64,000 nt of DNA from Flectonema sp. DT1601 (taxonomy: Eukaryota): assembly GCA_964019425.1 (NCBI GenBank), contig OZ025804.1, positions 310,001-374,000 on the forward strand, read 5' to 3'. Under the pieces are notes generated by a model that was not told the origin of the DNA, did not search any database, and saw only the letters and a list, made by a program, of their open reading frames with translations. Shown here piece after piece: positions 32,937 to 44,261 of the stretch. Every line of letters starts with the position of its first letter. The first letter of the stretch is position 1. The translations under genes were made by a program, and so were the position numbers.

Positions 32937-35900
32937 TTAAATATTCTCATTTGAAGGTTCTGCTGTGTCACCAGATGGTGACGCATCATGTGGCCTGAGT
33001 GGATTGAGATCAGCAAATGGAATATGCTGTTGAACAGATGGTTGTGATGCCGGAGTAATCTCCGAGTCATTACGCACACCAACTATTGAATGGGTTTGAT
33101 CATCAGTTTGTGTAACAGACTCTGAAGACTTACTCGAGGTGTCTAGTTTTTCATAACCCATTTCTACATCTCTATTTTCAATTTTTAAATCATCTTCCGA
33201 ATCGCTGCTGTCAGAAACTTCGTCGCTAAACTTCTTAAACTGCGGACTCGAAGATAAATAACTAAAGAAAGACTGCATCTCTTCTTGATGATATTTCACT
33301 ATAATGTTAACCACAAAGTCACAAGAGATAAAGCTACTTAATATAACCTTCTTTTCAGACGCTAATCTAGATGTAAACAGTCGAGCATCAAAGCTGTCGA
33401 GTGAACGAGAGACAGACGAAGGGTCTAAGCGAATGAAGTTTTTAATAGAAGCGATGGCTTCATTTCTACCCCGTTTGGCGATGTCATTTTCACGAGTTTG
33501 GAGAGGAGCAGCTCCAAGAGGAGGGTCAAGGATTTGTTCTGTTTTAATAATCCTGACTTGCATAAAAATTGATCTCTCTAAACTCTGAAAGAAAGCACCC
33601 GTATACGTGGTTTTCACAATCTTTTTAAAACAACCCATTAATAACAAAAGTTGATATGCAGTTAGATTTGCTAAGTCTGACGTCACACATTCAAACGTGT
33701 CTGAATCATGATTGTCGAGCTCCTGAATTATACGATCCTTTGTTTTGGGTTCAGGAGGTTCACTTAGAAGAGAATCTAACTTACCATACCATAATAGTCT
33801 TAGAAATAATGGACATAATCCGTGTCGGGATCTTGGAGATTTGACCACTTCTCTAAGGTTGAATGATGTCATCTTAGCAGCCATTAGTAGAAACAATCGA
33901 TAGCCAGTCGTAATCTTAAGCTCTCCAAGAAGGAATTCAACGACTTGAATAAACCTCGCTCTTCCTTTAAATATTTTTATTAATATTTGAATCATTTTAC
34001 CGTTGTATTTTTGTTGACACAATGATAAGATTTCAGTTTCTATTTCAGGTGTCAGTGTGATTCCAGGATCAACTAAACCACCAGCAGAACTTTGTTTAGG
34101 AGAAGGAAACCTTACTGTTTGTTTTAATTTCTTAACTACTCTGTCAGCTGGCATATCAGTCACTTCATGAAGATGGATTATTTCGTCTTTACATCCTGTT
34201 AACAAATTCGTCATTAACATCACCAAACGATGTCTAATCGCCGGAAGCATAAACGCAGAATCAAAAATATGATAAACAGCTTCTGTAGTAATATCACGAG
34301 AAGCGGCCTCAAAGACGTTTGAAATTACCTGATTGGTAGATGTTTGTGTGTGTTATTTTTTTTCTTCTTTATAATAAGATAAACAAATGCCGTGAACCAG
34401 AGGAAGAAGTAATCAGTAGACTCATCAAGTATAATATTCTGATATATCAACAGCAGCAGTTCTGAGAAGACCGCAGAATACTTTATCATCATTTTAGTTA
34501 TGAGGTGGCTATCGTACTGAGGTTACCAACTGTTCTCAAAATGCACAAGTCTTCCATCCATGTAGGGGTTCGAGACGTATATTTGTTACGTCACAACCAG
34601 GACAGTTGAAATGGTTTGACTACTGGAGATGAATTGAATCAGATCTCCCATCCATGTAGGGGTTCGAGACGTATATTTGAACTGACGTAACAACCAGGAA
34701 GGTGAAATGGTTTGATAAGAATAGTTTGTAAGCAGTTAAAGCAGCTTTGAGGATTGGGTTTGACAGGAACTAATTTAGTTGCAGGCAACTACAACACAAA
34801 TGGGTGACAAGAATAGAGAACAACAATACTTATCAGTAGACTCATCAAGTATAATATTCTGATATATCAACAGCAGCAGTTCTGAGAAGACCGCAGAATA
34901 CTTTATCATCATTTTAGTTATGAGGTGGCTATCGTACTGAGGTTACCAACTGTTCTCAAAATGCACAAGTCTTCCATCCATGTAGGGGTTCGAGACGTAT
35001 ATTTGTTACGTCACAACCAGGACAGTTGAAATGGTTTGACTACTGGAGATGAATTGAATCAGATCTCCCATCCATGTAGGGGTTCGAGACGTATATTTGA
35101 ACTGACGTAACAACCAGGAAGGTGAAATGGTTTGATAAGAATAGTTTGTAAGCAGTTAAAGCAGCTTTGAGGATTGGGTTTGACAGGAACTAATTTAGTT
35201 GCAGGCAACTACAACACAAATGGGTGACAAGAATAGAGAACAACAATACTTATCAGTAGACTCATCAAGTATAATATTCTGATATATCAACAGCAGCAGT
35301 TCTGAGAAGACCGCAGAATACTTTATCATCATTTTAGTTATGAGGTGGCTATCGTACTGAGGTTACCAACTGTTCTAGAAATGCACAAGTCTCCCATCCA
35401 TGTAGGGGTTCGAGACGTATATTTGAACTGACGTAACAACCAGGAAGGTGAAATGGTTTGATAAGAATAGTTTGTAAGCAGTTAAAGCAGCTTTGAAGAT
35501 TGGGTTTGACAGGAACTAATTTAGTTGCAGGCAACTACAACACAAATGGGTGACAAGAATAGAGAACAACAATACTTATCAGTAGACTCATCAAGTATAA
35601 TATTCTGATATATCAACAGCAGCAGTTCTGAGAAGACCGCAGAATACTTTATCATCATTTTAGTTATGAGGTGGCTATCGTACTGAGGTTACCAACTGTT
35701 CTCGAAATGCACAAGTCTTCCATCCATGTAGGGGTTCGAGACGTATATTTGTTACGTCACAACCAGGACAGTTGAAATGGTTTGACTACTGGAGACGAAT
35801 TGAATCAGATCTCCCATCCATGTAGGGGTTCGAGACGTATATTTGAACTGACGTAACAACCAGGAAGGTGAAATGGTTTGATAAGAATAGTTTGTAAGCA

Positions 35901-41900: not shown

Positions 41901-44261
41901 AATACTTTATCATCATTTTAGTTATGAGGTGGCTATCGTACTGAGGTTACCAACTGTTCTCGAAATGCACAAGTCTTCCATCCATGTAGGGGTTCGAGAC
42001 GTATATTTATTACGTCACAACCAGGACAGTTGAAATGGTTTGACTACTGGAGACGAATTGAATCAGATCTCCCATCCATGTAGGGGTTCGAGACGTATAT
42101 TTGTTACGTCACAACCAGGACAGTTGAAATGGTTTGACTACTGGAGACGAATTGAATCAGATCTTCCATCCATGTAGGGGTTCGAGACGTATATTTGAAC
42201 TGACGTAACAACCAGGAAGGTGAAATGGTTTGATAAGAATAGTTTGTAAGCAGTTAAGGCAGCTTTGAGGATTGGGTTTGACAGGAACTAATTTAGTTGC
42301 AGGCAACTACAACACAAATGGGTGACAAGAATAGAGAACAACAATACTTATCAGTAGACTCATCAAGTATAATATTCTGATATATCAACAGCAGCAGTTC
42401 TGAGAAGACCGCAGAATACTTTATCATCATTTTAGTTATGAGGTGGCTAGCGTACTGAGGTTACCAACTGTTCTCGAAATGCACAAGTCTTCCATCCATG
42501 TAGGGGTTCGAGACGTATATTTGTTACGTCACAACCAGGACAGTTGAAATGGTTTGACTACTGGAGACGAATTGAATCAGATCTCCCATCCATGTAGGGG
42601 TTCGAGACGTATATTTGAACTGACGTAACAACCAGGAAGGTGAAATGGTTTGATAAGAATAGTTTGTTAAAGCAGCTTTGGGGATTGGAACTAATTTCTT
42701 AAAACCTTTTAATAAAACACATACCCTTGGGAACTATACGACACACTCCGGATGAGATAATTTGCGACGTTGCGGCATCCGTGTTCGAGAGGAAGTTGCT
42801 GTAGTCATCAAGGGAAGCAGTACCACCGGAATTCGCTTCAATCTTTTTAATTATTGAGCAAATGATGTCAGCATACCCACCGCTACCTTCAATAATTAGA
42901 AGGGGCCACTTCCTCTCTGCGTATTGAATTAAATTAAATTTTAGCTGCTCTGGAGATCCGCCGATTACTACGCCGACGACTCGGGAGGGTTGACGTGGAA
43001 TGGGAAAACGAGGTGTTTTTGGCTTCAATAAAGCTGCAGCATCAAACAGTCTGATAATTGCATCATCCCTTATCCTAGTTGAAGTTAGTGTGTTCGACTG
43101 AACAGTCACGTGATGTGTGAACCACTCAGATCTAGGAATGGCTGTCTGACATCGTTCATCGTTATCAGAATTTATCATGTTTTGAGCTCTGTAGTCTAAG
43201 ACAGGTACCTTACCAGTCATGGCTAGTCCATTCATTTCGTGTGATCGAATAGCTCCAGCGGTGTGAATTCCCCTCGCTAATGCTCTCATGATACCACTGG
43301 TATCAGTACAGCATACGACAGCAGTTCTCTTTCTAGCTGCTGTCACAATCGAACGTGTGATATATTGTTTTATAAACTTAGCTATGTCAGATGATGTTAG
43401 TATCCCACCAGCGTCATCTCCGAGGTCGATAATATTTTGAATGTCATCATCACCATCGTCGTCAACTTCAGCAAGTTCACCCAGACCTTGAGTTGCTAAT
43501 TTCTTTCTCTTTTCCTCAAGTCGTTGAGTCTGTTGTAGGGATGCTTTAACTTGTTGTTGTTGGCTGTCATTAGTTCCCGAAGTGGCATTTAATGAAGTTG
43601 CTCCCCCACCAGGTTTTCGTGCAGAAGGTGCAGATGGAAGTGCTGAGTCTCTGTATGTGCCGTCCTCTTCCTCATCACTGCTTTCATCATCCAGTAGTTG
43701 AACTCCTTTACGAATTTGAACGGCTTCCTTGCGTTGAGTTTTCTTTCGCTGTTCTTCTTTTTTATCCAATGAGACTCTGTGGGCTATGAAAGCTAATAGA
43801 CCATCGCCTTCTCCAAGTTGATCAGTTGAGATTTTCCCTCGTTTACGTGAATTAGTATCTTTTAATTTCATTCTCGTAAACTCCACCTCACCCAAAATAT
43901 TAATAAAACCCTTAGGAAGTAACTCTCTTACATTAGTGATGCTATCTGGGGATATTGCCTTTCCACTTGTCGTTAGAGCAGGTGTGTTTGGAGTGTCTTT
44001 TCTACACCACGTTGACAACACTGGATTGTATATAACTGTTTCTTCTCGTCTCCAAAACCCTTCACTGTAGGTTCCTTTCATTCTTAATAGTTTGAATGAC
44101 TTGAGCATCTTTTCTCCTTTGTCGGTGTCATTGATTTTAAAATCTGCACTCCAGCCTGGTCGCTGCAGCATATCAATTACTTCGTGATGACGAGGTGCTT
44201 CTTCAAAGCTCTCAGCTTTGTCGAACATGTCTTTCCACTCATTAGCTGGAGGGCTATTCAT
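32937..44261 (-). CDS. Large (~2,039 aa) SLOG(LSDAT)-like + tandem SLATT/DUF4231-like transmembrane protein with a long helical C-terminus
   Basis: Exons 44261-42725, 40148-36958 and 34328-32937 join in frame (VPKG|MIPS; GEK|VIS), 6120 nt. SLOG-like: TDTSGIMRAL, FTHHVTV, VVGVVIGGS, WPLLIIEGSGGYADII. SLATT-like: KWVSLKSASEGLLSEIYMYR, YANLRL...SY, KYTAVMHELQGLQAWW, CESKIISE, with 4 TM helices. Confidence 0.75.
34412..36925. repeat. Tandem array A of the 326+94n-bp repeat (in intron 36957-34329)
   Basis: Unit starts at 34412, 34832, 35252, 35578, 35998, 36418, 36744 (periods 420, 420, 326, 420, 420, 326). Confidence 0.98.
40199..42697. repeat. Tandem array B of the same repeat (in intron 42724-40149)
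   Basis: Unit starts at 40388, 40808, 41322, 41836, 42350 (periods 420, 514, 514, 514); the right end is decayed by small deletions. Confidence 0.98.

Follow-up and report, generated by a model that had tools for sequence, protein, structure and literature searches.

The domains from which the protein described here is built, and their fusion in prokaryotes, are already known as Pfam families. LSDAT_prok (PF18171), DUF4231 (PF14015) and SLATT_1 (PF18181), together with the prokaryotic fusion that joins them, were reportedly defined by Burroughs et al. in 2015. Two kinds of described system come closest. In TRPM channels the N-terminal MHR1/2 region is an LSDAT_euk domain, of the SLOG type, and TRPM2 is gated by ADP-ribose (ADPR); the accessible text of TRPM papers cites that 2015 study for the SLOG-TRP fusion (PMC13143021; choanoflagellate preprint 10.64898/2026.06.15.732245). 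In Thoeris systems, as far as the accessible sources go, SLATT and SLOG modules read ADPR derivatives made by TIR proteins, type VII pairing TIR with the SLATT effector ThsH and cyclic ADPR (cADPR), and type I carrying SLOG within ThsA. The available part of one report describes activation of type VII SLATT effectors by cADPR and predicts that they assemble into membrane-spanning oligomers, with charged pockets at the protomer interfaces (bioRxiv 10.64898/2025.12.03.692087), and that of Iyer et al. predicts that SLATT acts on membrane permeability under the control of ADPR derivatives (PMC9503650). Within a 64,000-nucleotide (nt) stretch of Flectonema sp. DT1601 (contig OZ025804.1, 310,001-374,000, forward strand), which is referred to here as the window and whose positions serve as coordinates throughout, a predicted three-exon gene at 32937-44261 on the minus strand encodes a SLOG domain, DUF4231 and SLATT_1 in a single chain. 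It is neither an orphan nor a recent transfer, and represents an old, conserved euglenozoan family with ancient paralogues.

How does this protein compare with the systems already described? With the prokaryotic LSDAT_prok-DUF4231-SLATT_1 proteins (for instance P0004, P0005 and those of loci L001-L071) it shares the order of the domains and the invariant core residues, and the homology is continuous from the C-terminal half of the SLOG domain through SLATT_1. It differs from them in that the gene contains introns and encodes about 2,000 amino acids (aa) as against 520-770, in that the SLOG domain is interrupted by large insertions and its first two loops are changed, in the approximately 1,100 aa of additional linker and helical repeats, and in that no TIR partner was seen in the window. 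With TRPM it has in common the N-terminal cytosolic fold, a coupled membrane part and cytosolic helical repeats, but the membrane part is a four-helix DUF4231/SLATT_1 unit rather than a six-transmembrane (TM) TRP pore, no Ion_trans Pfam match being present in the three exons or in 14 aligned family rows. The repeats, moreover, are C-terminal, and the equivalents of TRPM2 Y295 and R358 are not conserved. Unlike Thoeris, the SLOG domain and two 2-TM modules stand in one eukaryotic chain.

The gene extends over three long minus-strand open reading frames (ORFs) separated by two satellite arrays. Joining 44261-42725, 40148-36958 and 34328-32937 gives 6,120 nt in one frame, encoding 2,039 aa with the sole stop at the terminus. 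GT donors stand at 42724 and 36957, AG acceptors precede 40148 and 34328, and the intron phases are 1 and 0. The features are as follows.

42725..44261, minus strand: exon 1 (aa 1-512), LSDAT/SLOG domain, TRPM MHR1/2-like, split by two insertions
43883-43404, minus strand: charged insertion of 160 aa inside the SLOG domain, separating the first strand from the rest
42867..42890, minus strand: SLOG glycine loop EGSGGYAD (aa 458-465); the equivalent loop carries R358 in human TRPM2
40149..42724, minus strand: intron 1, GT-AG, phase 1, 2,576 bp, 97% composite satellite
36958..40148, minus strand: exon 2 (aa 513-1576), DUF4231, SLATT_1, coiled-coil-like linker and first half of the repeat tail
39682..40113, minus strand: DUF4231 module, predicted TM1 40020-39958 and TM2 39867-39805
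39019..39390, minus strand: SLATT_1 module, predicted TM3 39312-39253 and TM4 39228-39166
34329..36957, minus strand: intron 2, GT-AG, phase 0, 2,629 bp, 96% the same 94/326/420-bp satellite
32937..34328, minus strand: exon 3 (aa 1577-2039 and stop), remaining half of the repeat tail, then a C-terminus of low conservation
33177..38568, minus strand: tail of helical repeats (aa ~1040-1960, with intron 2 falling inside it), degenerate units of about 85 aa

A reading made from the sequence alone, hereafter the sequence-only reading, had proposed that the three ORFs belong to one gene, and both the open GT-AG-joined frame and the orthologues that cross both junctions agree with it; the splicing is known by homology. 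With the spliced model as blastp query, single-ORF proteins of 1,750-2,530 aa, from transcriptomes and genomes, align through both junctions. These include Namystynia P0024 (aa 253-1948, E 2e-167), Eutreptiella P0032 (aa 236-1983, E 2e-164), D. papillatum DIPPA_16298 (aa 428-1910, E 4e-100), Papus P0019 and the 'Hpha' transcript P0021 (aa 116-1938), whose label we take to mean Hemistasia. The orthologue alignment is free of gaps at junction 1 and in register at junction 2, and the closest relative, P0036, is a single protein of 1,941 aa with 58% identity across exon 2. A 1,072-aa product in the protein collection, P0001, is exon 2 alone, and the accompanying remark that annotation may break the gene up is therefore borne out.

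The N-terminal domain, in the AlphaFold model of exon 1 (mean predicted local distance difference test score, pLDDT, 64, and 80-92 over the last 80 residues), is shown with a predicted fold of the MHR1/2, TRPM-like type. Foldseek returned 164 matches at E<=1e-3, and among the matches listed all are TRPM channels, the best being 8srj (E 5.4e-8 over about 250 columns). The template-modelling score is only 0.25-0.29, with a root-mean-square deviation of 6-10 Å, because of the insertions in the domain, which is interrupted by a beta-rich insertion as well as by the charged one. LSDAT_euk and LSDAT_prok are both matched at E<=1 by 13 of the 14 aligned family rows, the exception being exon 2 alone, and the orthologues P0009, P0011 and P0017 each exceed one LSDAT Pfam cut-off. 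Exon 1 is assigned to LSDAT/SLOG from the fold together with Pfam matches below the cut-offs. The span first given for it, about 43370-42725, is too short. Alignment to bacterial LSDAT proteins places the start near aa 38 (~44150), and alignment to 64 of them places the first strand at aa ~120-124 (G124), ahead of the 160-aa charged insertion, so that the domain is larger than had been read. Other members vary at the same domain. One paralogue group (P0009, P0011-P0015, P0017, P0018 and P0022) carries a Cys/His-rich insertion of 200-330 aa with 9-12 Cys, a possible zinc-binding module that is absent from the paralogue group of the window protein, and in P0021 residues 103-175 form a ubiquitin-like domain (E 1e-13) inserted in the N-terminal part of SLOG, which is either real or an assembly chimera.

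The two 2-TM modules recognised in the sequence-only reading hold up. Exon 2 matches Pfam DUF4231 (E 2.2e-6, 28.5 bits, cut-off 24.7) and SLATT_1 (E 2.3e-13, 50.7 bits, cut-off 26.3), each with two predicted TM helices, and the order LSDAT-DUF4231-SLATT_1 recurs across the family. A hydropathy scan gives TM1-TM3 at 1.6 or above, TM4 being weaker and based on the model and the alignment. TM1 and TM2 are hydrophobic, while small or polar residues make up 11 of 20 positions in TM3 and 10 of 21 in TM4. The AlphaFold model of exon 2 (pLDDT 72) is all helical, with the membrane part as two helical hairpins. The SLOG domain and the tail would lie in the cytosol, with a four-helix membrane part between them in the chain, and an N-glycosylation sequon in the TM1-TM2 loop is consistent with cytosolic termini. 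The DUF4231-SLATT_1 core is better conserved than the SLOG pocket: at 31 of its positions identity reaches 80% or more in the 48 eukaryote-type rows and likewise in the 80 prokaryote-type ones. These positions include D755, R770, E885 and R658, the last of which is invariant in 128/128 rows (48/48 and 80/80). These four residues could form a gate or a second ligand site.

The more than 1,000 aa that follow had been described as unrecognised helical sequence, and they are indeed helical and without a recognised family, but they are not featureless. Profile-profile comparison shows the tail to be composed of predicted degenerate repeats of about 85 aa: of 45 pairs of segments, E falls below 0.01 in 28 and the probability is near or above 90% in five, and the best pair reaches 96% and E 3.7e-9, as against E 0.013 for the best of 40 control pairs. 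The tail was not folded alone; no recognised family or fold was found for it, nor any Pfam family match for exon 3.

Homology of the fused core to prokaryotic SLOG-SLATT proteins is confirmed. The LSDAT-DUF4231-SLATT_1 core is encoded at 71 prokaryotic loci in GTDB genomes (Acidobacteriota, Chloroflexota, Verrucomicrobiota, Myxococcota, Bacteroidota, Streptomyces and one archaeon), and every one of the 14 eukaryotic sequences is matched by the bacterial profile, with E values from 2e-59 to 4e-89, which shows, at the level of alignment, continuous homology across the core. Among the bacterial genes several further associations were seen. In the Acidobacteriaceae loci L024, L025, L027 and L061 (~9340-10860, minus) TIR-TonB_C fusion genes stand beside the LSDAT-SLATT gene, and several of the four also have glycosyl hydrolase 108 and LprI genes. 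A protein of about 185 aa adjoins the LSDAT-SLATT gene in 19 of the 71 loci (L021-L041 and others, e.g. L029:4277-4834 (-)) and has no Pfam match at E<=1e-3; its motifs, as we presume, resemble another SLOG-superfamily domain. Bacterial-type variants, P0148 and P0140, include a STAND NTPase fused before LSDAT-DUF4231-SLATT_1 and a version with two LSDAT domains.

In eukaryotes the family is present in all three main euglenozoan groups: labelled members come from the diplonemids D. papillatum, Namystynia, Artemidia and Lacrimia, from the free-living kinetoplastids Bodo saltans and Papus, and from the euglenid Eutreptiella gymnastica, two Eutreptiella members being auto-named in UniRef after the SLATT domain. 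Namystynia, Bodo and Eutreptiella have two paralogues each. Quick trees of the core region, computed with 78, 30 and 55 rows, place the eukaryote-type sequences in one clade with a long stem and a Shimodaira-Hasegawa-like approximate likelihood ratio test (SH-aLRT) value of 100 in all three trees, and resolve no bacterial donor lineage. The window protein clusters with a single paralogue from each of Eutreptiella and Namystynia (SH-aLRT 95 and 93) and not with the second paralogue of either, which suggests that the gene was duplicated before euglenids and diplonemids diverged. In two assemblies divergent paralogue pairs (P0012 with P0014, and P0013 with P0018) may each lie on one contig. Of the suggestion that the gene was acquired horizontally or anciently retained, the bacterial homology stands. 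The gene is not an isolated acquisition and belongs to an old family found throughout Euglenozoa, for which a single early transfer from bacteria would be the simplest reading.

What would such a protein do? The reading preferred here, tentatively and with somewhat less than even confidence, is that of a four-TM, nucleotide-gated oligomeric pore, derived from a bacterial TIR-linked effector that was taken up a single time, ahead of the divergence of Euglenozoa, and kept for regulated ion signalling. By analogy with SLATT effectors, the protein would oligomerise through its four helices. A nucleotide, probably derived from nicotinamide adenine dinucleotide (NAD+), would bind at the conserved loops of SLOG, at the invariant Arg, Asp and Glu residues in the cytosolic core of SLATT, or at both, and open the pore, and the repeat tail and the insertions would add eukaryotic regulation, the tail as an allosteric or protein-binding platform. 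Low copy number and long full-length conservation would fit routine regulated signalling, and not suicide, better than an arms-race effector.

The ligand pocket is the crux of this proposal. In human TRPM2, according to the accessible part of the structural report, the residues Y295, R302 and R358, together with the first part of a helix, bind ADPR, and the region that our mapping equates with the conserved SLOG loops holds its phosphates (PMC6759353). Pocket residues were mapped from human TRPM2 through bacterial P0005 and counted in 43 family, 64 bacterial and 14 eukaryotic rows. The fifth-strand GG loop is near-invariant (G434 in 41/43 and G435 in 43/43 family rows), each position of the loop at 458-465 is matched in 35-42 of the 43, and both loops are more uniform in the eukaryotic family than in the bacterial rows; the R302 region is not alignable. 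A pocket of the TRPM2 type is thus only partly kept on the alignment, and because conservation is divided between the loops an ADPR site identical to that of TRPM2 is not supported, while a putative phosphate-binding half-site likely persists. The earlier proposal of a nucleotide-gated membrane effector is kept as a tentative reading, qualified by a SLOG pocket that is only partly conserved.

Several observations weigh against the gated pore. Within the pocket, the first-strand GGA loop retains a single Gly (G124) next to the large insertion; the Asp of the second (DGG) loop, present in 62/64 bacterial rows, is absent in 14/14 eukaryotic rows; a Trp equivalent to Y295, found in 55/64 bacterial rows, was not found in the eukaryotic rows, where the stretch aligns poorly; and the R358 position is Gly in most eukaryotic rows and in 52/64 bacterial ones. 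The Pfam matches of exon 1 itself fall short: it scores 22.7 bits for LSDAT_euk (E 7.3e-5), where the cut-off is 25.7, and 20.6 bits for LSDAT_prok (E 2.9e-4), where it is 25.4. As for the link to TIR signals, TIR_2 exceeds its Pfam cut-off within 5 kb in 22 ORFs at 21 of the 71 prokaryotic loci, including TIR-STAND-WD40 and SIR2-TIR proteins, but this is a raw count set against no background rate, four of the positive loci (L024, L025, L027 and L061) are near-identical, and 50 loci have no TIR within that distance. The trees carry SH-aLRT support only and a midpoint root, so the direction of transfer is deduced from the patchy eukaryotic range. No experiments on any LSDAT-SLATT fusion were found in the literature, and DIPPA_16298 was not found in the accessible 4,870-protein spatial proteome table of P. 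papillatum, in which a positive control identifier was found (PMC12697944).

With two of the four pocket loops lost, the SLOG domain might no longer bind nucleotide and the TM helices might not conduct, leaving a scaffold or sensor anchored in the membrane, with the repeat tail doing the work. The tail accounts for half of the protein and is retained by every euglenozoan group, and the SLOG insertions are large and variable (0-241 aa at one site and, in some paralogues, a Cys/His-rich 79-397 aa at another). Yet conservation peaks in the SLOG C-terminal loops and the SLATT core, where aa 401-900 have 17-21 near-invariant columns in every 100 aa as against 1-11 in the tail, and the bacterial proteins, which lack a tail, have these residues fixed too. 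We regard a scaffold of this kind as unlikely.

The protein may instead still be an immune effector, whose pore would open on a signal set off by a virus, with death or arrest of the infected protist as the outcome, in the manner of Thoeris and CBASS membrane effectors in bacteria. The conserved gating core and the TIR genes near the bacterial homologues (21/71 loci) speak for this, as does the cADPR-dependent toxicity of SLATT effectors in the available text of that report (bioRxiv 10.64898/2025.12.03.692087), and absence from a standard-growth proteome is what a low-abundance or inducible protein might show (PMC12697944, accessible part). Against it, the paralogues are few, ancient and conserved in full length across Euglenozoa with no large expansion seen; the neighbouring genes are of housekeeping type (eIF2A, CSE1, Maf1, SET and GFA); no PADLOC model matches the three exons at E<=0.01; and no match to a TIR or cyclase, as a signal-making partner, was obtained among the 20 other window ORFs scanned, although such linkage is not expected in a eukaryote. 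We regard this explanation as fairly improbable, and the protist immune or cell-death channel of the sequence-only reading is left as possible but unsupported, with no specific pointer to it.

With regard to origin, the fusion could be an ancient eukaryotic inheritance lost or undetected elsewhere, rather than the product of a transfer into the euglenozoan ancestor. The long stem without a nested bacterial donor would allow this, and most of the best 150 phmmer matches (of 628 at E<=1e-3 in the full library) lack an organism label, so other eukaryotes may be among them. However, all 12 organism-labelled eukaryote-type clusters are euglenozoan, and the tail occurs in 44 of those best 150, mostly long proteins of the same type, whereas most of the other 106 are bacterial-like proteins of 290-760 aa, making ancient inheritance distinctly improbable. 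Finally, it is very improbable that the ORFs are three separate genes or bacterial contamination since, although their joining is inferred from homology and not from reads of Flectonema sp. DT1601, the GT-AG borders preserve the frame, the orthologues run through both junctions as described, and the neighbouring genes are eukaryotic with similar GC content (40.5% vs 42-44%).

The wider window also has features of interest. The scanned ORFs include eIF2A, CSE1, Maf1, SET, GFA, TPR and LRR genes, and nearly all neighbours lie on the same strand as the SLOG-SLATT gene. A composite satellite of 94/326/420-bp units, 91-100% identical and in a single orientation, occupies about 8.3 kb; it has no Rfam match, and the intron-1 array has no ORF above 58 aa.

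34412-36925, 40199-42688 (both introns), 47689-48804 and 50698-52869, all in the same orientation: satellite blocks

The accessible text of PMC10161547 reports GT-AG introns with repeats inside them, and clusters of genes that share one orientation, in Diplonema papillatum; taken with the homologues, this suggests that the host is likely a diplonemid. Two close minus-strand paralogues at 1979-3634 and 61864-63246, 60 kb apart, encode BspA-type leucine-rich repeats (LRR_5, 75-bp tandem units) with an N-terminus that looks ubiquitin-like by eye, and probably belong to an expanded family. The ORF at 19087-21273 (-), of 728 aa, matches DUF5054 and is a candidate secreted carbohydrate-active protein.

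In the accessible portions of the literature no publication on this eukaryotic SLOG-DUF4231-SLATT_1 family was found, and the available text of PMC7016017 makes no mention of the SLATT domain. A more far-reaching reading, possible but doubtful, would make the family an undescribed euglenozoan class of ligand-gated channel, in which a bacterial TIR-signal effector, captured before euglenids, diplonemids and kinetoplastids parted, gained a tail and is now a receptor for cADPR or another NAD+-derived messenger, possibly even an antiviral death channel. On this reading the LSDAT sensor would have reached a eukaryotic channel by a second, independent path, in parallel with TRPM. If the gated-pore reading is right, the family would make the question of SLATT gating testable, SLATT activation being called a central open question for DRT10 in the available part of a 2026 preprint (10.64898/2026.04.29.721553): P. 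papillatum (DIPPA_16298) and Bodo saltans (CUG52385 and CUF69144) are genetically tractable hosts, and for finding the ligand there are compact bacterial homologues next to TIR genes. On the same condition, one of the most abundant groups of marine protists would have a channel family whose pore is unrelated to those of TRP, IP3R and RyR. It would also be a clear example of a eukaryote having domesticated an immune-signalling effector of bacterial origin.

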